DNA of 24,000 bases from assembly GCF_001719125.1 (NCBI RefSeq), contig NZ_CP017006.1, forward strand, positions 1,912,384 to 1,936,383, written 5' to 3'. Below, in pieces: positions 3,401 through 16,803 of this stretch; position 1 is the stretch's first letter, and the number at the start of each line of letters is the position of its first letter. The notes below the pieces were generated by a model. It was not told the DNA's origin and searched no databases. It was given only the letters and a program-made list of their open reading frames with translations. Origin of the DNA: Saccharolobus sp. A20 (GTDB lineage Archaea; Thermoproteota; Thermoprotei_A; Sulfolobales; Sulfolobaceae). The translations under genes were made by a program, and so were the position numbers.

Positions 3401-4171
3401 CTAAAAGACTACTGATGTAGGTTCTCTAATAATACTTTTAACATATTCCACAAGCTGTGAAATTTCTTTGGGTTGTTCTATATCTTTGAAATGTTTTTGT
3501 ATGAATAGGGGATAGAAAGGAACAATAAATTTAGCAGGTTTCTGTAGAATTTCGTCACCTTTTAAAAGTTCGTTGATACTATTTTCTTGTTCCTTAATCA
3601 CCTTATTTAGTACAATAGCCCATATTCTTAAGAATCTTGCATTTTCTGGTAAGTTAAGGTGTAGAAGGTCTTCTACTTCATGCTTTATGAAATCATTTAG
3701 TAATGAAGTGTAATTTAAGTATCTCTTAATTGATAGTTCATCACTACTTAAAATTAAAATTACGTTATAAGTATATGCTTTAAAGCTTTCGATAAAGGCT
3801 TTTAGTTCGATCTCGATGGCAAAGTCATGGGGTAGAGAAGAATGATCTACTATGACAATATCTGAATCGTCTAGCAACTTCTTATATAGATATTTAAACC
3901 CATTAAGATCTACTTCTTCAAGATTTGTATCAGTTGAAAAGCTCATATTTATTACATTTAAATTTCCCTTGGTAGTGTAAAATGATTCATTTTTTCCTCT
4001 TAGAAAGGAGAAGATACTATTATTTAAATTATATATTTTACTTATAGTACCAGAGAATGTCTTGTCCACTAATGTTACAGCATAATATTGGCTCAATTCC
4101 TTAGCAAGATAATAAGCTATCATTGATTTTCCGGAACCGCCTTTGAATCCTAGCACATTTATTCTCAGCAT
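3401..4171 (-). CDS. ParA/MinD-family P-loop ATPase with extended C-terminal region, orphan
   Basis: 256 aa. MLRINVLGFKGGSGKSMIAYYLA is a deviant Walker A (KGGSGKS). SDIVIVDHSS is Walker-B-like. About 100 aa of C-terminal extension with no recognisable motif. Confidence 0.7.
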   Translation of the reverse strand: MLRINVLGFKGGSGKSMIAYYLAKELSQYYAVTLVDKTFSGTISKIYNLNNSIFSFLRGKNESFYTTKGNLNVINMSFSTDTNLEEVDLNGFKYLYKKLLDDSDIVIVDHSSLPHDFAIEIELKAFIESFKAYTYNVILILSSDELSIKRYLNYTSLLNDFIKHEVEDLLHLNLPENARFLRIWAIVLNKVIKEQENSINELLKGDEILQKPAKFIVPFYPLFIQKHFKDIEQPKEISQLVEYVKSIIREPTSVVF

Positions 4172-4804
4172 TTCTATTTATCCTTAACCAATTCTAGCTT
4201 ATAAAATTATATTATAAATTATAAAGATAAAGACTGATCCATTTGATAAACCTATATAAACTTTATATGTTTATACATTCATGTATTTGAGCGTTTTATC
4301 AAATTACTTAATACCTTATTCTTTAGATAGGTTTTAACTATTATTAACAGATTAGATGAGTTTCCAGTGAATTATTAGTTATACAAATTCTAAGTAAAAT
4401 TAATGTCGATTTATCAGCCCATTATTTTAACCTAAGACGACGCCTTTTGTTGACCTATAATAAATAATATTATATTTACATATGTGTGAATAGTAATTTC
4501 GTTTATTTGTAGAATAAGCTTATCAAGCGCTTTTATCTTAAATGGAACCTTATTTATCGAAAATTACTCATTATATTATATCTTACTGAACTTCTGTCAA
4601 TAAACATCACTTTTGACATTTTATATTAAAGTAGAAATTATTCTTATATATATTGTACAAAAAATCCTTAAAAATATTACATATTTTTCTAACTAAACTG
4701 ATACCATTTAGTTATAAATATCTTAAAATTTTTTAACTCAATATTTTATATCAGTGATAATGTTTTAAAAGAAAAGCCAATTATTAGTGTAGATCTAATA
4801 TAAA

Positions 4805-5029
4805 TCATGAAATAGCATTATAAGCGTTTTTCTGTTTTAGGTATTTTAGGTACTCATAAATTGCCTCTCTGATTAAATCACTTCTACAGTTGTAATTAAA
4901 TTTACTAACTAAATAGTCTATTATTTCCAAAAGATTATCGTCGAGCTTAAAGCTTACTACTGTTGATTTTTCTATGTCAATGATGAATGTAGTATCATTG
5001 ACTCGAGTTATTTTTTCCATGACTTTCAC
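4805..5029 (-). CDS. ribbon-helix-helix (CopG/Arc/MetJ-type) DNA-binding protein
   Basis: VVSFKLDDNLLEIIDYLVSKFNYNCRSDLIREAIYEYL fits beta-strand / helix / helix of RHH proteins. The track start at 5029 is a GTG. An ATG at 5020 (MEKITRV...) is an equally plausible start. Confidence 0.65.
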   Translation of the reverse strand: MKVMEKITRVNDTTFIIDIEKSTVVSFKLDDNLLEIIDYLVSKFNYNCRSDLIREAIYEYLKYLKQKNAYNAIS

Positions 5030-5220: not shown

Positions 5221-5400
5221 TTAGTTTTTTTCAAAGTTAAGAGATATAATTATAAGTAACGTGCCAAGTAAGAGGCAGTAAAACGTATAATCACCTAATA
5301 CCTCCGTTAAGATGTTATTTTTAGTATAAAGTATTGATGATATAATTAACTCTATTATTCCAGTCAGCACGAACGATCTTCCGAGATTATAAATTTTCAT
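5221..5400 (-). CDS. unannotated small membrane protein (59 aa, two hydrophobic segments)
   Basis: Hand translation of the reverse complement gives MKIYNLGRSFVLTGIIELIISSILYTKNNILTEVLGDYTFYCLLLGTLLIIISLNFEKN, then TAA. Its ATG (5400-5398) overlaps the TGA (5399-5397) of the upstream 164-aa ORF as ATGA. It is below the ORF-track length cutoff. Confidence 0.45.
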   Translation of the reverse strand: MKIYNLGRSFVLTGIIELIISSILYTKNNILTEVLGDYTFYCLLLGTLLIIISLNFEKN

Positions 5401-5891
5401 TTTTTACTCACCTTCTGTAATATCAAATAAAATGATGCTACCAAAGTTATCGTAAGAGCTAATGTTTCATACTCGTACTTATTATAATTCTTCGTTCCGG
5501 TATGTAGGATATAATAGGGTATAGTCCTATATATATTCGGACCTAATTGGATAGTTGATCCTATAAGAGTAATATTTTCTCCATTTCCTATTGCATGTAT
5601 GACTATTCCGTTATAGACATCGATGTAGACAGTAAAGTTATTAATTGACATAGTAGTTACGAGGATTCCATCATAAGTAGTTAAGTTGTTTGCAGTATAG
5701 TTAGGAATAAATATTAAGAAAGAGGGATATGAAACGATATATGACAAATAGATATTGTTACTTATTTGTGTTACATTTGCTAATATTGAATTATTTTCAA
5801 TACTAATTATTTTTATTAGCAGATAATAACTTATATGATTGCCGGTAACCAAATAAAGCAATGTAGCATTAATTATATCCATTTTTATCAC
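5397..5891 (-). CDS. hypothetical beta-rich protein with a single C-terminal TM anchor (paralog of 8688-9167)
   Basis: 164 aa. C-terminal TLALTITLVASFYLILQ followed by KVSKK. It starts immediately after the stop of the ArnR-like gene (5892). It shares the spaced motifs NxI(S/T)YY(L/I)(L/I)xx(I/F)IS and (V/A)YNG(I/L)(V/I)(I/L) with the 159-aa ORF. Confidence 0.6.
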   Translation of the reverse strand: MIKMDIINATLLYLVTGNHISYYLLIKIISIENNSILANVTQISNNIYLSYIVSYPSFLIFIPNYTANNLTTYDGILVTTMSINNFTVYIDVYNGIVIHAIGNGENITLIGSTIQLGPNIYRTIPYYILHTGTKNYNKYEYETLALTITLVASFYLILQKVSKK

Positions 5892-6698
5892 CTATTTCAT
5901 CGAAATATATGCGAATATACCTAATAGAGTAGAAAAAATCAGCATAAAGAGCCAAATTATCGCAATTAAGTGAACAACATCATAATTTTTAAAATATATT
6001 AATATAGGGGACGTTAAAGACAGTATTGCCATTAATTTTAACAATGAAGTCTCGTAATTTATACTAAAAGTCATTTTTAACAATATTTTTAGAAATACAT
6101 TTCTTCTTAATTTCACTAAAATCGGTATTTTATATGCTATTTTTTTGCCTTCAACATTTAGTACATAAATTTGATAACTCTTGCCAAGTAGATTCTTTTT
6201 ACTTACTCTCTTAAACATTTTTCTTTCAGTGAATAGATCTAAATAGTATTTTAATGTTTGTGTTGATACCCCTAGTTCTTTTGATACTTTACCAGGATTT
6301 ACCTCTCCGTTATTTAGTAGAGATATCTTAACTAGTTCAATAAGGTAGAAGAGCTGAACCAGATTCTCCCCAAGGGACGATAAGGGGTTATTTAATTCCT
6401 GCTTTATACTTCTATCATCGTTGATAAGAAGTTTATTCAAAATACTTACTAGTTGTCTGCCTTTTTCTGATAAATCGTATATATCATATTTAACCTTGAT
6501 AACTAGCTCTTTCTCTATTAATTTTCTAATAGCATCAGTAACAGATTTTTTACTGTTACCAGTTATGTTGGCGATTTCAGAGACGGAACAAGGACCCTTA
6601 GAATTGATTGTAAACAGTATATCCCATTGTAACTTTGATCTAGAGAAGTCTATTATAGAATCTAATTGCTTCAAAGTATTAAATATGTTAGTGTCCAT
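5892..6698 (-). CDS. arnR: ArnR-like membrane-anchored transcription regulator (two winged-helix domains plus two C-terminal TM helices)
   Basis: 268 aa. wHTH 1: CSVSEIANITGNSKKSVTDAIRKLIEKELVIKV...LSEKGRQLV. wHTH 2: NPGKVSKELGVSTQTLKYYLDLFTERKMFKRV. C-terminus: LLKLMAILSLTSPILIYF and VVHLIAIIWLFMLIFSTLLGIFAYI. The architecture and the position next to the archaellum operon match ArnR of Sulfolobus acidocaldarius. Confidence 0.65.
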   Translation of the reverse strand: MDTNIFNTLKQLDSIIDFSRSKLQWDILFTINSKGPCSVSEIANITGNSKKSVTDAIRKLIEKELVIKVKYDIYDLSEKGRQLVSILNKLLINDDRSIKQELNNPLSSLGENLVQLFYLIELVKISLLNNGEVNPGKVSKELGVSTQTLKYYLDLFTERKMFKRVSKKNLLGKSYQIYVLNVEGKKIAYKIPILVKLRRNVFLKILLKMTFSINYETSLLKLMAILSLTSPILIYFKNYDVVHLIAIIWLFMLIFSTLLGIFAYISMK

Positions 6699-6760
6699 GC
6701 CTGTATAACATTATAGTTTGTATCTATTTAAACATTTGATATAATTAGACAAAATGCCAC

Positions 6761-7165
6761 TCAGTTGCAAATATTTACATTCCTTTTCATCATGGTCGCT
6801 AAGAAATCTATTCCCTCATACTTATCCAAAATCATAACATCAGAGTTAATTTTTAGAATTAAATTTTCATTTGATATAACTATACTACACTCATTTAGGG
6901 TTGTAGGAAAATATGCGGAAGTTAAGCTTTGTTCAAAAACTTTGAATTTTTTCATTATTAGTGATGCGATGTCTTTGCCATATATCTTCTTAACGTACTC
7001 ATATAATGTTTTCTCGTTTTTAATTTCTGGTATCTTGGACTCATAAGCTAAGTATGATGATAAAAACAACGTTGGAATTATCAATATGTATAATCTAATT
7101 GTTACTATTAAAGTGATTAACGAGGAAATTATCAAGAGTAAGGAAATCTTGTAACTCTCTCTCAC
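6761..7165 (-). CDS. hypothetical membrane protein (N-terminal TM hairpin plus about 90-aa soluble domain)
   Basis: 134 aa, GTG start. ISLLLIISSLITLIVTIRLYILIIPTLFLSSYL is hydrophobic and the remainder is charged/soluble. Same strand as, and 35 nt downstream of, the 491-aa ORF. Confidence 0.55.
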   Translation of the reverse strand: MRESYKISLLLIISSLITLIVTIRLYILIIPTLFLSSYLAYESKIPEIKNEKTLYEYVKKIYGKDIASLIMKKFKVFEQSLTSAYFPTTLNECSIVISNENLILKINSDVMILDKYEGIDFLATMMKRNVNICN

Positions 7166-7200
7166 AAGTATATTAACTTGAAGTGAAATATATAAATTTT

Positions 7201-8676
7201 TTAGTATAACAGTGGGACACTATTGATACTCATATATATTCCCCATAGTATAAACGCTAACATTAATAGGACAGAGAGATCGTATCTAAAGTTCTTTAAG
7301 GCATATGCTAATGGAATAAATAGGGGTAGGTCAATGATTAGGTTAGTAGCAGAACCAATAAACAGTGTTCCTATAACTGAAATAATATATAGTATGTTCA
7401 CCATTTCATTCTTTAAATATCTATTACCGAGTGCAGAGATTAGAAAATAAAGTAATGCATTATTAGAACCCCAGCTAACTACAGCTATCTGATAAATTAG
7501 TTGGTTATAATTAAGGATGTTTAGAGAGAATGGAACAGGGAATTTGCCAATAAATATCATTATTAGTCCGAAGGAAAGGAAAGGAAGTATTGTACTTATA
7601 TATATTTTTTCATATTTATCTAAATTATATTTTTTCATTATTCTTCTAAAAGCATAATAAATCAAGATTCCACCGGCTAGTTGTGCCCATGCATAAATAT
7701 GAGATAACATAGCTAGAAAGGATAGTAACATTGCTAGTCCTAATTTTTCTCTCTTTATAAGATAAGACATTGATAAAAACATTAGTGATATTGAAAAAAG
7801 GTTAGCATCTAAACCTGAATAAAGGAATGTGATTAACATAGGGGATACTACGGCTAATAGTGAAGACAAAGGTGCTATTGACTTATCTATAGAGGAGGAT
7901 AATTTGTATGCAGAAAATGTGTACAACAACGAGAGGAATACGAATTGGTAGAATGTAGTTAAGTACGGTTTAAATAAAAAAGACAAAATGAGAAGAAATA
8001 TTAAATAAAAAGGTCTTGTGTCAAAAAACCATCCACTAAATTGAGGATTCATTAACCATGAAAAATAATATCTAAAATCTACAGTTTCAGGAATTTTGGA
8101 GGGATTTAGGCTAGGCAAGTAAGGCAGCAAAGATATACATAAAACGACGATAAACGGTAAGATAGGATTGATATTTATTGCATTATTGTTTGTTTTTTTG
8201 TGAGGAATTAAGGCAAATATAATACCAATAAACCATACAATTGGTATAATAGTGGGTAATCCGATTTGAAAGATCATTAATGGTATAGATAAGTATGTAT
8301 TGATATTGAATATTAAACGTATTAATATCCATGAAATCATAGAAGAATCCAATATTATAAGTAATAATAATAAAAGTGATGAGGGATACTGTTTTCTCCT
8401 AGTTATTTCGAAGAGAAGAATAAGGATAGCGGAGATTGATTGAATGACGTAAGGGTAAAAGAATGATAATAATGATACCGGGATTAAGAAAACATATTTT
8501 TTATGATCATAGAATGCCAATAATGCGGATGACAGTATTATCAGTATAATTGATAGAAAGTCAGATTTAAAAATTGGATAATAAGTAATTCTATTAATTG
8601 TAAGATATATACCAGAGGCTAAAATATAGGAAATAAAAATGAGAAGTAGTGAGATCCATGGAATGTGAACTTTCAA
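7201..8676 (-). CDS. polytopic integral membrane protein (roughly a dozen or more TM segments, no large soluble domain); family not recognised
   Basis: 491-aa uninterrupted ORF, almost entirely hydrophobic segments separated by short loops. Starts 11 nt after the stop of the 159-aa ORF. Confidence 0.75.
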   Translation of the reverse strand: MKVHIPWISLLLIFISYILASGIYLTINRITYYPIFKSDFLSIILIILSSALLAFYDHKKYVFLIPVSLLSFFYPYVIQSISAILILLFEITRRKQYPSSLLLLLLIILDSSMISWILIRLIFNINTYLSIPLMIFQIGLPTIIPIVWFIGIIFALIPHKKTNNNAININPILPFIVVLCISLLPYLPSLNPSKIPETVDFRYYFSWLMNPQFSGWFFDTRPFYLIFLLILSFLFKPYLTTFYQFVFLSLLYTFSAYKLSSSIDKSIAPLSSLLAVVSPMLITFLYSGLDANLFSISLMFLSMSYLIKREKLGLAMLLSFLAMLSHIYAWAQLAGGILIYYAFRRIMKKYNLDKYEKIYISTILPFLSFGLIMIFIGKFPVPFSLNILNYNQLIYQIAVVSWGSNNALLYFLISALGNRYLKNEMVNILYIISVIGTLFIGSATNLIIDLPLFIPLAYALKNFRYDLSVLLMLAFILWGIYMSINSVPLLY

Positions 8677-8687
8677 ACTTTTGATTG

Positions 8688-9167
8688 CTATAATTTTCTA
8701 TCACCTCTAGTTACAATTCTAAATAATATTAGAGAAAATAATAGAGCCATAACTGATCCTAGAACTGTATAACTATTATTAAAAAGCGATATACCAGCTA
8801 ATTTATCTAAATTTGGAAACGTCGAGTTTGAAATTCCTGGATAGTGTGCACTAACAAGGCACATTATGGAATTATAATTTTCCTTCTTTAAAATCAACCC
8901 ATTATAAGCGACAATTATTTTTCCATTATCGGACGAATATGCTAGTATTTTATTTCCATTTAAATGATAATATATAGCATTTCCAGAAACATTTGAAAAT
9001 ATTTGTTCCGGTTCTATGGAAGCATTATAATTTAATATGGTGTGAGAATATGGATTTATAACATATACTGAAACTATTTTTAAGGAGATATTTGATATAA
9101 AAACATAAATTATATAGTATGTTATGTTATTGTCTATCACTTTATACTCTAAAAAGAAAGGATTCAT
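8688..9167 (-). CDS. hypothetical beta-rich protein with a single C-terminal TM anchor (paralog of 5397-5891)
   Basis: 159 aa. C-terminal YTVLGSVMALLFSLILFRIV followed by TRGDRKL. Divergent from arlB across a 124-bp intergenic region. Confidence 0.6.
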   Translation of the reverse strand: MNPFFLEYKVIDNNITYYIIYVFISNISLKIVSVYVINPYSHTILNYNASIEPEQIFSNVSGNAIYYHLNGNKILAYSSDNGKIIVAYNGLILKKENYNSIMCLVSAHYPGISNSTFPNLDKLAGISLFNNSYTVLGSVMALLFSLILFRIVTRGDRKL

Positions 9168-9245
9168 GCTATTTCTTTAATAGAATAATGTTCTTAAAAA
9201 ACTCCTTATTTTATCGGTGACTGGTAGTCGAAAGTAATGGAGAGG

Positions 9246-9253
9246 TTTTTAAA
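9246..9253 (+). promoter_or_regulatory. TATA-box candidate of the archaellin (arlB) promoter
   Basis: TTTTTAAA is centred about 42 nt upstream of the ATG at 9292. A GGTGA Shine-Dalgarno-like motif at 9277-9281 would lie in the short leader. Confidence 0.4.
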
Positions 9254-9291
9254 GACCAAAGGACAGTTTTCTTTTAGGTGAGTGAAAAGAT

Positions 9292-10212
9292 ATGGGATTT
9301 AAAAAAGTAATAAAAGAATATAATAAAAAAATGAAAAGAAAAGGATTAGCTGGTTTGGACACTGCGATAATATTAATAGCTTTTATAATAACTGCTTCAG
9401 TATTAGCATATGTTGCGATAAATATGGGATTATTTGTGACACAGAAAGCAAAATCAACAATAGATAAAGGTGAGGAGACAGCATCTACAGCATTAACTCT
9501 GTCTGGGTCGGTGTTGTATGCAGTTAATTATCCATCTAATTCCAGAAGTTATTGGATATACTTTACTGTTTCTCCAAGCTCTGGAGTATCAAGTGTAGAA
9601 CTATCGCCTGCAACTACTGCAATATCATTCACTGCCTCCGCATTAGGAGTAGCATATTCCAATATTTATAAATATACTTTACTTACTGTATCTCCCTCAG
9701 AGGTCAACGGAGTAGTGTATGCTGCACCTCAATATCTAAGCCTAGCTGATCAAGAATCAAGTGGAGGGCAAACTTACGTATATTATCCTAATCCGTACTA
9801 TGCTTTACTAGCCCTCAATTATAGCTTATATCAAATGGTGCTTAGCAAGCAAATAAAATATTCACCGCTGTATATAACGACTACCAAGTCGACTTCGACT
9901 CAAACATGGCTGACATCTGATAACGTGTTTCAATTCACATTAAACATTAGCGGAACACTCGAGATATTTTATGCGTATGTTAATCAGACTTTTGCCTTTA
10001 CTTATCCAGTCGCAGGAGACCCATTAATTGGTAGTGCTATAGCACCGGCTGGTTCAGTAATAGGTGTAATGATTCTGTTCGGACCAGACCTAGGAAGCCA
10101 TGTATTCCAATACCAGACCATAACCATACAAATATCTCCTAATATTGGATCGCCACTAACCCTATCAGAATATGTATATCAACCAGAAGGAAATGTGACG
10201 GTAATAGGATAA
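9292..10212 (+). CDS. arlB: archaellin ArlB (FlaB), the only archaellin gene in the window
   Basis: 306 aa. The basic leader ...KKMKRKG is followed by LAGLDTAIILIAFIITASVLAYVAI, a class III (type IV pilin-like) signal peptide plus hydrophobic N-terminal helix. The predicted PibD-type cut after G18 puts the mature protein at nt 9346. First gene of the arl cluster. Confidence 0.95.
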   Translation: MGFKKVIKEYNKKMKRKGLAGLDTAIILIAFIITASVLAYVAINMGLFVTQKAKSTIDKGEETASTALTLSGSVLYAVNYPSNSRSYWIYFTVSPSSGVSSVELSPATTAISFTASALGVAYSNIYKYTLLTVSPSEVNGVVYAAPQYLSLADQESSGGQTYVYYPNPYYALLALNYSLYQMVLSKQIKYSPLYITTTKSTSTQTWLTSDNVFQFTLNISGTLEIFYAYVNQTFAFTYPVAGDPLIGSAIAPAGSVIGVMILFGPDLGSHVFQYQTITIQISPNIGSPLTLSEYVYQPEGNVTVIG

Positions 10213-15585: not shown

Positions 15586-15742
15586 TGAATCGGTATTAAC
15601 CATTATTTAAACTTTAGAAGAACCTGTGTTGTATGGATTGTTATTTCGAATTATATAAAATCTTTAACTCTACTAATGAGATTCTATGTAGGAATATAAA
15701 CTGTAATTAATATTCAAATCCTGAAATTCCGTTTGCGAATGT

Positions 15743-15890
15743 ATATGTGAACAACAATTTAATTTACTCTATAAAATTCAATTTTATTCTGAATTATGCC
15801 AATAGATTTCGAATAGGTCGTGTTAAGGAAGAATGTTTTTAACCATTTCCTTATTGTGTCTTTCGTTAAGTTCGAAGGTAAGTCCATGCT
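15743..15890 (-). mobile_element. degenerate second copy (inverted orientation) of the MITE at 17960-18215
   Basis: ATATGTGAACAACAATTT (15743-15760) matches the MITE terminal repeat GTGTGTGGACAACAATTT at 15 of 18 positions. The following ~130 nt align with the reverse complement of about 18058-18215, for example ATAAAATTCAATTTTATTC, CAATAGATTTCGA, TTATTGTGT. Beyond about 15890 the similarity fades, and the far end near 16007 is not clearly recognisable. Confidence 0.55.
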
Positions 15891-16803
15891 TGCCAGCCTA
15901 AGCTTCTGAATACTTGCTAAACTTACTCTTGTCGAAAGTCTCTGTGCTTTGCAAGAGTATATTATAAACTGATGTCTTATCATGCATAATGACGATGTTG
16001 TATCTCCAATTATCTAGTTCAGTCCCTTTTAACATTACGTAAACGTGAAATTAACTCTCTTAGGGCATGAAGACTCGTAATGCTTAACAATGTATCTCGC
16101 CTTAAACTAAAAACAAAGAAATGATTACGATCCTCAACATTAATCCTGTTAACTAAGATTAGTTAACTTGTAAAAAGCAAATTACTATGAGGCAAAAGTT
16201 CTCCGACCGGATAGAACCCAAGAGGTTGAGCTAAGGCAATATAAAGGATTAAACCTAGGTTTAAAAAGGGAAGAATTAGAGCATGAATGAGGAAATTAAC
16301 TTTCGTGTTTTCATCCCAATAAATAACCTCACTCAAAACTTTTCTGTAACAAAGAAAATACAATTTATACAAAATAACTAACCAAATTATCGTCTACACA
16401 TTGTATGACTGCACTATATTCATCAACTATTTATCTCCATTGATTACACTACTTATAGCTTAGAACTTTTAAGTTATTTGGCTATAAGTTTATGTTCAGG
16501 TATAAACCTGATATACGAAAAATAATAACGTAGCCATAAAGGTACAAATCTTGATTACATCTCCATTTCAAACATATTAACGTCCTACAGTGTTTTAAAA
16601 CTCCTATTTATAGCCTTTGTTGCCTTTACTAGCACGTGCTAATTTAATGTCATTATAGAAAGTTCAGAACCTATAGCTAATATAAAGTCCATTGATGTAA
16701 TGGTGAAGTCTAACTTAAATAGGTACTATATTTGTATGTTATAATTGTTGCTAAAAATTATAATTAGCAGAGAATGTTTCCTAGGTAAAGGCGGAAGTTT
16801 TTC

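Follow-up and report, generated by a model that had tools for sequence, protein, structure and literature searches.

A gene pair encoding a GT-C-like membrane protein and a small membrane protein adjoins the archaellin gene in Sulfolobales

Six membrane-protein genes upstream of arlB

We analysed a window of 24,000 nucleotides from the genome of Sulfolobus sp. A20 (contig NZ_CP017006.1) that carries an archaellum (arl) locus, in which the archaellin gene arlB is followed on its 3' side by arlX, G, F, H, I and J, in that order. Head-to-head with arlB lies a minus-strand block of six open reading frames (ORFs), which we nicknamed w159, w491, w134, arnR, w164 and w59 (Table 1). Our main subject is the pair closest to arlB, w159–w491, whose linkage to the archaellin gene is conserved and whose larger product resembles membrane glycosyltransferases of the GT-C fold.

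A first-pass annotation of the window had listed six minus-strand ORFs with tight spacing and had predicted that every product sits in the membrane. All six are present, as are the 124-bp head-to-head spacer between w159 and arlB (9168–9291), the gap of 11 nt between w159 and w491, the abutment of arnR and w164, and the ATGA overlap of w164 and w59 (5400–5397), whose junction is preceded by a GGTGAG motif. Homologues of w164 begin at an ATG three codons further inside, and with this start the gap between arnR and w164 becomes 9 nt. Hydropathy profiles locate membrane segments in all six products; for w159 they add a second, weaker N-terminal hydrophobic stretch (residues 19–37), which that annotation had not listed, to the transmembrane segment at 134–152. 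Similar-length homologues of all six products (27–67% identity) occur in other Sulfolobales arl neighbourhoods, and none of the six is a chance ORF.

Scanning the block proteins against Pfam and NCBIfam gave a family match for arnR alone, and an Rfam scan of the window returned no match. A scan for bacterial-type promoters and terminators was uninformative, as the host is an archaeon. The initial remark that no family could be recognised for the genes other than the regulator holds for these curated collections; it does not hold for w134, which is an orthologue of the published Saci_1179, nor for w491, which can be placed by its fold.

Table 1 Block genes and promoter elements upstream of arlB (window positions)
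Feature	Position	Strand	Description
w59	5221..5400	-	59-aa micro-protein, two transmembrane segments; ATGA overlap with w164
w164	5397..5891	-	164 aa, beta-rich sequon-rich domain, C-terminal transmembrane helix; directly downstream of arnR
arnR	5892..6698	-	268-aa membrane-bound one-component activator, N-terminal winged helix-turn-helix, two C-terminal transmembrane helices
w134	6761..7165	-	134 aa, N-terminal transmembrane segment(s), sequon-free C-terminal domain; Saci_1179 orthologue
w491	7201..8676	-	491 aa, polytopic, TTG start; protein 100% identical to BFU36_09950 of Sulfolobus sp. A20; SiRe_0126 orthologue
w159	8688..9167	-	159 aa; first gene of the operon divergent from arlB; SiRe_0125 orthologue by gene order
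Left TATA-like element	9194..9200	-	TTTTTAA, ~30 nt upstream of the w159 ATG; predicted w159–w491 promoter
ArnR box	9217..9231	.	GTGACTGGTAGTCGA; predicted; separated by 16 nt from the left TATA and by 14 nt from that of arlB
arlB TATA box	9246..9253	+	TTTTTAAA; 46 nt upstream of the arlB ATG; arlB BRE (transcription factor B recognition element)/TATA core promoter
arlB (archaellin)	9292..10212	+	Pfam Arch_flagellin, E 4e-18; 68–84% identity to Sulfolobales ArlB proteins; presumed to work together with the block

Linkage to the archaellin gene and a shared regulatory spacer

The first-pass annotation had proposed examining whether parts of the block are syntenic with arlB and arnR across Sulfolobales. 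This linkage proved strong: the w159–w491 pair adjoins arlB, in divergent orientation, in 12/12 Sulfolobales lineages with readable context, four uncultured ones among them. The survey stands without the loci of Acidianus sp. HS-5 and Sulfodiicoccus, where ArlB look-ups gave no contig. For M. sedula and M. prunae the linkage was judged from consecutive accession numbers, and in M. javensis the pair is intact and the contig stops before arlB. In S. islandicus the same six genes stand in the same order beside arlB (products of 161, 489, 147, 269, 161 and 60 aa), followed by a ribbon-helix-helix (RHH) gene and ParA/CbiA-type ATPases. The six-gene arrangement is also found in S. tokodaii, a Saccharolobus metagenome-assembled genome (MAG) and the metagenome contigs L023–L025.

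Only the pair is fixed in more distant lineages (a Sulfolobaceae MAG, two uncultured lineages, M. yellowstonensis, Candidatus (Ca.) Aramenus and locus L039), where a gene of 154–168 aa overlaps or nearly touches a gene of 471–490 aa, divergent from arlB. Across every lineage, the w159 and w491 homologues overlap or are at most 13 nt apart. Homologues of w134, w164, w59, arnR and a CbiA-type ATPase are present in nearly all neighbourhoods, with order and strand shuffled. Among these, w164 and w59 stay together, usually beside arnR: w164 adjoins arnR in most lineages that carry both genes, and w59 directly follows w164 in S. islandicus, S. tokodaii, M. yellowstonensis and Ca. Aramenus. The block, first presented as an uncharacterised set of six genes, is best read as a composite of three units, w159–w491, w134 and arnR–w164–w59, of which the first is fixed beside arlB and the others vary in order and strand.

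Arl loci without the pair are those of Sulfolobus acidocaldarius and of lineage L032, as well as other loci of non-Sulfolobales type (two of them from a Marsarchaeota ArlB cluster). The 10 loci obtained when genomes were scanned with an ArnR alignment did not include that of S. acidocaldarius, which was found via an ArlB cluster. No homologue of w159, w491, w164 or w59 was detected in this 21-kb locus, and none lies within 10 kb of arlB. The order there is arlB, a 125-aa gene, arnR and a 611-aa protein-kinase gene, which we take to be ArnS. Since this species has a working ArnR and archaellum, the four genes are not general requirements for ArnR signalling or archaellum assembly. The L032 contig (Ga0081529_120164) carries a Sulfolobales-like arl operon with arlX and a 59% identical arlB, and none of the block genes within 10 kb upstream of arlB; its sole ArnR-like gene follows arlJ, the position of arnR1 in S. 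acidocaldarius, and an ArnR-box-like site still lies upstream of arlB.

The pair and the archaellin gene share one regulatory spacer. We aligned this region from A20, S. islandicus, the Saccharolobus MAG, S. tokodaii, two metagenome lineages and S. acidocaldarius. Between the left and arlB TATA regions, which together make up an inverted repeat, sits a single ArnR box. The TTAAAA core of the left element is invariant across the seven regions, and the AGGTTTTTAAA block at the arlB TATA is essentially invariant in all seven species, including S. acidocaldarius. Compared with the published ArnR box consensus TCGAC-N5-GTCGA (PMC6396743), the A20 box matches at 8/10 specified bases, and the box is perfect at the same position in S. 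tokodaii, L008 and L025. The order TATA, ArnR box, TATA is kept in six species with a 121–124-nt spacer and also in S. acidocaldarius, which has the same layout with a 21-nt insertion bearing a second box, and where the leftward gene is Saci_1179. Both S. acidocaldarius boxes are reported as needed for in vitro binding; A20, Saccharolobus and Sulfurisphaera have one (L081, 9859–10000 compared). Given the mirrored TATA boxes around one ArnR box, ArnR is predicted to activate transcription in both directions and would thereby control the w159–w491 promoter as well.

Co-expression with the archaellum genes, which the first-pass annotation had suggested measuring, is already on record. SiRe_0125 and SiRe_0126 were down-regulated together with the fla cluster in RNA sequencing of S. 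islandicus (PMC10465181). That study places these hypothetical genes between arnR and the fla cluster, notes their absence from S. acidocaldarius and suggests a role in motility. As the arl genes are SiRe_0118–0124, SiRe_0125 and SiRe_0126 are the 161-aa and 489-aa genes of S. islandicus, and thus orthologues of w159 and w491 by position (56–60% identity). Similarly, Saci_1179 belongs to the ArnRAB iModulon of S. acidocaldarius (Saci_1172–1179; PMC8578740). The analysis of fold, family, paralogy, promoter and distribution given here for SiRe_0125/0126 and their orthologues is new relative to PMC10465181.

Fold of w491 and the proposed role of the pair

A word-indexed search recovered only 15 relatives of w491, all from Sulfolobaceae. 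We modelled the protein from 14 orthologues with AlphaFold2 (AF2), obtaining a predicted local distance difference test (pLDDT) value of 83 and a predicted template-modelling (pTM) score of 0.84. When the model was compared with the PDB using Foldseek, the only matches with a probability of 0.85–1.0 were yeast STT3, ArnT, PglB, ALG9 and Pmt4, all GT-C enzymes; every remaining match had a probability below 0.15 and a template-modelling (TM) score of about 0.1. An exhaustive hidden Markov model (HMM) search added 135 remote relatives, mostly 560–600 aa long. The only Pfam families recurring among 60 relatives were PMT_2 (6/60) and STT3 (2/60), with one PMT_2 match above its curated cut-off (26.8 vs 26.1 bits). 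The five PMT_2 matches that were located individually all begin within 2 residues of the equivalent of an invariant R221–P222, and this shared register favours true homology over chance matches between transmembrane segments.

Three residues, D200, R221 and H326, are invariant in 60/60 superfamily sequences, and R29, N191, Y204, G288, A291 and P451 are nearly so. From the helices of the model, its hydropathy and the placement of Lys and Arg residues, we infer that the three invariant residues lie on the outer face. D200 falls in a later loop that is predicted to point outward, ~20–30 residues before the PMT_2-like core and after approximately the sixth transmembrane segment. Taken together, w491 looks like a new family of putative glycosyltransferases with a GT-C fold (PMT_2/STT3-like), covered by no curated model. 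It shares with known GT-C enzymes (ArnT, PglB/AglB/STT3, PMTs, ALG) a polytopic all-helical membrane fold; the invariant Asp in a predicted outward loop just before the core, with an invariant Arg and His predicted on the same face, may be a further resemblance. Unlike them, it has no soluble domain, its core is preceded by ~170 residues (roughly 6 transmembrane segments), and its orthologues are confined to Sulfolobales and tied to arlB.

The partner protein, w159, was described in the first-pass annotation as having a paralogue in w164. Pairwise BLASTP gives this no support (E 0.18). Profile comparison does: hhalign aligned the two families over 135 columns with a probability of 94.7% (E 6.3e-8), and the family HMMs cross-match reciprocally (1e-9 to 4e-3). 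Control comparisons with the w134 family, ArlF, ArlG and ArlX stayed below 1% probability. w164 is a remote paralogue of w159. Both are beta-rich, with a C-terminal transmembrane helix each, and rich in N-x-S/T sequons: six in w159 (3.8 per 100 aa; 4–6 in homologues) and seven in w164 (5–10 in homologues). Their density of 3.8–4.3 per 100 residues compares with 0–1.6 in cytoplasmic proteins of the window and 1.3 in ArlB, and exceeds that of ArlF as well. This suggests that the two domains are glycosylated and lie outside the cell. The AF2 model of w159 is poor (pLDDT 46, from a shallow alignment) and serves as a hint of secondary structure only.

We also considered other identities for the small proteins. 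w159, w164 and w134 were rejected as homologues of ArlF, ArlG or ArlX, as no profile similarity was found. An archaellin-like or type IV pilin-like nature of w159 and w164 was likewise dismissed; neither matches PF01917 or TIGR02537, and their N-termini (MNPFFLEYKVID... and MDIINATLLY...) read as lacking a charged-then-hydrophobic signal.

The function of the w159–w491 pair that we regard as most likely is glycosylation outside the membrane, linked to the archaellum; we give the overall reading, three units with this function for the first, a probability of roughly 0.45. In such a scheme, binding of ArnR during starvation would switch on archaellin and the w159–w491 operon together. The w491 protein would act as a GT-C-fold membrane glycosyltransferase with D, R and H facing outward. 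Its neighbour w159, a sequon-rich beta domain on a C-terminal anchor, may be translationally coupled to w491 and probably makes up for the missing soluble extracellular domain of w491, serving substrate recognition or stability. Together, the two would use a lipid-linked sugar donor to glycosylate archaellin, or a different component of the archaellum or envelope, outside the membrane.

Filament subunit genes accompanied by glycosylation genes are known from bacteria. In Pseudomonas aeruginosa, TfpW with TfpX, and TfpO/PilO, are glycosylation genes linked to the pilin gene. Compared by description, they are the nearest functional analogy and offer the same combination of a membrane glycosyltransferase and a small accessory membrane protein, with genes directly beside that of the major subunit of a type IV filament and enzymes that modify the pilin outside the cytoplasm. 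The P. aeruginosa genes follow pilA on the same strand; w159–w491, unlike these, is divergent from arlB and shares its activator site.

A number of observations weigh against a role of the pair in archaellum-linked glycosylation. Neither w491 nor its orthologues match any Pfam or NCBIfam family, and profile searches of PDB sequences with the orthologue and superfamily alignments returned no GT-C protein, giving either nothing or transmembrane noise from rhodopsins and G-protein-coupled receptors. The GT-C matches of the model have weak values (query TM score 0.29–0.45, E 0.02–1.0) and indicate a resemblance at the level of the fold. The first outward loop of w491 (residues 22–38) has a conserved T26 and R29 and no conserved Asp or Glu, in contrast to classical GT-C enzymes, whose catalytic Asp lies there, and D200 can be assigned to the catalytic position only by taking the first ~170 residues as an extra N-terminal membrane domain. 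For w159, no signal peptide is recognisable (this applies to w164 too), and its predicted outward orientation is drawn solely from the positive-inside rule and the density of sequons. That ArnR would control the leftward promoter is read from the geometry of the spacer. The number of sequons and the Ser/Thr content of ArlB show no difference when lineages carrying the pair are compared with those lacking it, and S. acidocaldarius builds N-glycosylated, working archaella without w159–w491 near arl. Finally, the w491 orthologue is split in M. sedula DSM 5348 (Msed_1332/1333; fragments of 193–251 aa) and cut to 356 aa in one S. solfataricus record (P0009). The gene would therefore seem dispensable in the laboratory, and the damage in these records suggests loss in laboratory strains. 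In other Metallosphaera, unlike the M. sedula type strain, the orthologue is intact (484 aa).

Alternatively, the pair could be a general enzyme of envelope glycosylation or glycan assembly, acting on the S-layer, other pili or glycolipids and merely co-induced with the starvation and motility programme. Remote relatives of w491 do occur in generic glycan-biosynthesis clusters, not in filament loci. One of them clusters with two GT4 genes, one GT2 gene and a gene for a polytopic membrane protein that appears flippase-like by inspection. The lack of an ArlB sequence feature that tracks the pair fits here too, and ArnR also binds promoters of other type IV pili in S. acidocaldarius (PMC6396743). 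Nonetheless, wherever the context could be read, the orthologue immediately adjoins arlB, although its surroundings are otherwise heavily rearranged, and the pair shares the arlB regulatory spacer. Such strict adjacency is unusual for a housekeeping envelope enzyme, and we judge this explanation to be quite unlikely. Beside the same remote relative, a 163-aa ORF was examined as a possible w159-like partner and rejected (valine-rich, low-complexity, no HMM match). In lineage L019, a GT2 gene follows the block; like the GT genes around the remote relative, it is in keeping with the glycosyltransferase assignment of w491.

ArnR, its neighbours and the meaning of the linkage

The regulator had been identified as ArnR-like in the first pass, and we agree with this. 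It matches the NCBIfam ArnR model (NF041016) along its full length (residues 1–268 of 268; 362.9 bits, curated cut-off 400), has Pfam HTH_24 and MarR matches at residues 21–68, and shows two transmembrane segments by hydropathy (218–236 and 244–262). The gene lies 2.6 kb from arlB. Its product is 44–46% identical to ArnR and ArnR1 of S. acidocaldarius, with the same domain layout and likewise an ArnR box upstream of the arlB BRE/TATA. A20 and its relatives carry a single ArnR box, against two in S. acidocaldarius, and arnR is followed by w164–w59, which that species lacks. No paralogues of the block genes were found elsewhere in the window, and no arnR1 copy or remnant after arlJ (15586–16803). 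ArnR-like genes of ~300 aa with ~27% identity also lie beside arlB in L015 (779–1687) and L016 (1332–2237), in Methanomethylicia and other Thermoproteota MAGs, beyond the Sulfolobales/Desulfurococcales range given in the literature; the other block genes are absent there.

The w134 family HMM matches the 125-aa S. acidocaldarius gene, Saci_1179, over nearly its full length (E 6.7e-25), and tblastn gives 33% identity over 126 aa. According to PMC4307647, which cites Lassak 2013, Saci_1179 is a small membrane protein conserved in the fla loci of Sulfolobales, and deleting it caused no deregulation of archaella. Like w134, it lies beside arnR and is conserved in the arl loci. It holds the position divergent from arlB, which in A20 is taken by w159–w491, with w134 third in line. 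w134 would then be a small membrane protein co-expressed with arl, the loss of which has no visible regulatory phenotype.

The input signal of ArnR is not known (PMC10117864), and the first-pass annotation had proposed that the co-located membrane proteins form a sensory or assembly accessory module for the archaellum. The linkage and co-expression implied by this proposal were borne out; the sensing part was not, given the GT-C-like w491 and a S. acidocaldarius locus without four of the genes. A sensory module would pass a membrane or envelope cue to the transmembrane or sensor region of ArnR. This would suit the membrane nature of all products, the abutting or overlapping arnR, w164 and w59, and the recurrence of w164–w59 immediately next to arnR, whether following it or diverging from it, in A20, Saccharolobus, S. 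tokodaii, the L003 MAG, M. yellowstonensis, Ca. Aramenus and L039. However, ArnR of S. acidocaldarius responds to starvation with no w159, w491, w164 or w59 within 10 kb, and Saci_1179, the sole small gene that is shared, is the one whose deletion had no regulatory effect. The arnR-adjacent pair is not the one fixed beside arlB, and w164 lies apart from arnR in L004 and is absent in L019. The largest protein, w491, resembles an enzyme, which indicates glycosylation rather than sensing. We therefore consider a sensory module unlikely. A role as sensory partners is possible only for w164 and w59, which usually travel with arnR; arnR–w164–w59 is probably one transcript, and the two would be the best candidates for ArnR-associated membrane partners.

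ParA/MinD/CbiA-type ATPases recur around these loci: in the window (3401–4171 on the minus strand and 354–971 on the plus strand), in L003 (11538–12290), in L006 (11458–12168 and four more), and in L012 and L039. The M. yellowstonensis-type locus has five copies, and S. acidocaldarius has none near arl. These ATPases could serve in the positioning of archaella or the control of their number. A 328-aa gene follows the w164 homologue in L003 (13686–14672, plus strand). Its first 26 residues are 73% identical to w59, and the remainder forms a ParA/MinD-like ATPase that has 43% identity to a ParA-like protein of 242 aa from S. islandicus. It is possible that this represents a natural w59–ATPase fusion, or an assembly or frameshift artefact, as it is seen on one contig.

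It could be argued from these genes that the membrane proteins of the block are non-catalytic, acting as a platform that sets the site or number of archaella together with the ATPases, or in crossing of the S-layer. Such ATPases stand in or beside the block in every lineage (in the A20 window at 3401–4171, and between w491 and arnR in L003, L006, L012 and L039), and the L003 gene joins the first transmembrane segment of w59 to one of them. Against this, the position of three invariant residues (D, R and H) on the same side of a GT-C-like fold favours catalysis, the fusion is a single observation on one MAG contig, no homology to ArlF, ArlG or ArlX was found, and S. acidocaldarius has none of these genes near arl. 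A structural or positioning role is, in our view, very unlikely.

Just after the block, a 74-aa RHH gene (4805–5029, minus strand) resembles the aCcr1 family (36 bits vs a cut-off of 60) and is the SiRe_0131 orthologue by gene order. SiRe_0131 is the only non-essential aCcr1 paralogue, has very low expression and shows no binding to the cdvA promoter. The gene keeps its place next to the arl/arnR block, which suggests that its target is local. The stretches at 4172–4804 and 15586–16803 contain no ORF of at least 80 aa and no Rfam match. At the place equivalent to the former, S. islandicus has an extra gene for the 242-aa ParA-like protein, of which no remnant was detected in A20.

A more specific version of archaellum-linked glycosylation would treat w159–w491 as a dedicated, ArnR-switched filament modifier, in which a GT-C enzyme with a trans-acting extracellular subunit decorates exported archaellin with sugar, and w164–w59 provides the membrane input of ArnR. 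The sugar could be O-linked or a late addition to an N-glycan. We regard this full picture as speculative and rather doubtful. If true, w491 would be the first archaeal glycosyltransferase linked to a particular surface filament, overlooked so far owing to loss of the pair in the model species, S. acidocaldarius.

ArnR and Saci_1179 were already known, as were the co-expression and odd position of SiRe_0125/0126 from one 2023 paper (PMC10465181). In the searchable literature, we found no earlier report of the GT-C assignment of w491 with its invariant D, R and H, of the w159/w164 paralogy, of the mirrored promoter around a single ArnR box, or of the breadth and strictness of the w159–w491 linkage to arlB. 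A GT-C-type enzyme linked to a filament locus, from a family outside the curated models, appears to be new for archaea.

S. acidocaldarius is the source of almost everything known about how the crenarchaeal archaellum is assembled and regulated, and four of the six genes are missing near its arl locus. Most other sampled Sulfolobaceae carry an enzyme-like pair wired to the archaellin promoter, and the parts list of the Sulfolobales archaellum is thus probably incomplete. The w159–w491 pair is a testable candidate for filament-specific glycosylation in archaea, and w164 and w59 are candidates for the input of ArnR. S. islandicus REY15A, which is genetically tractable, has the whole block (SiRe_0125–0130 by gene order) and would be a suitable organism in which to study these roles.

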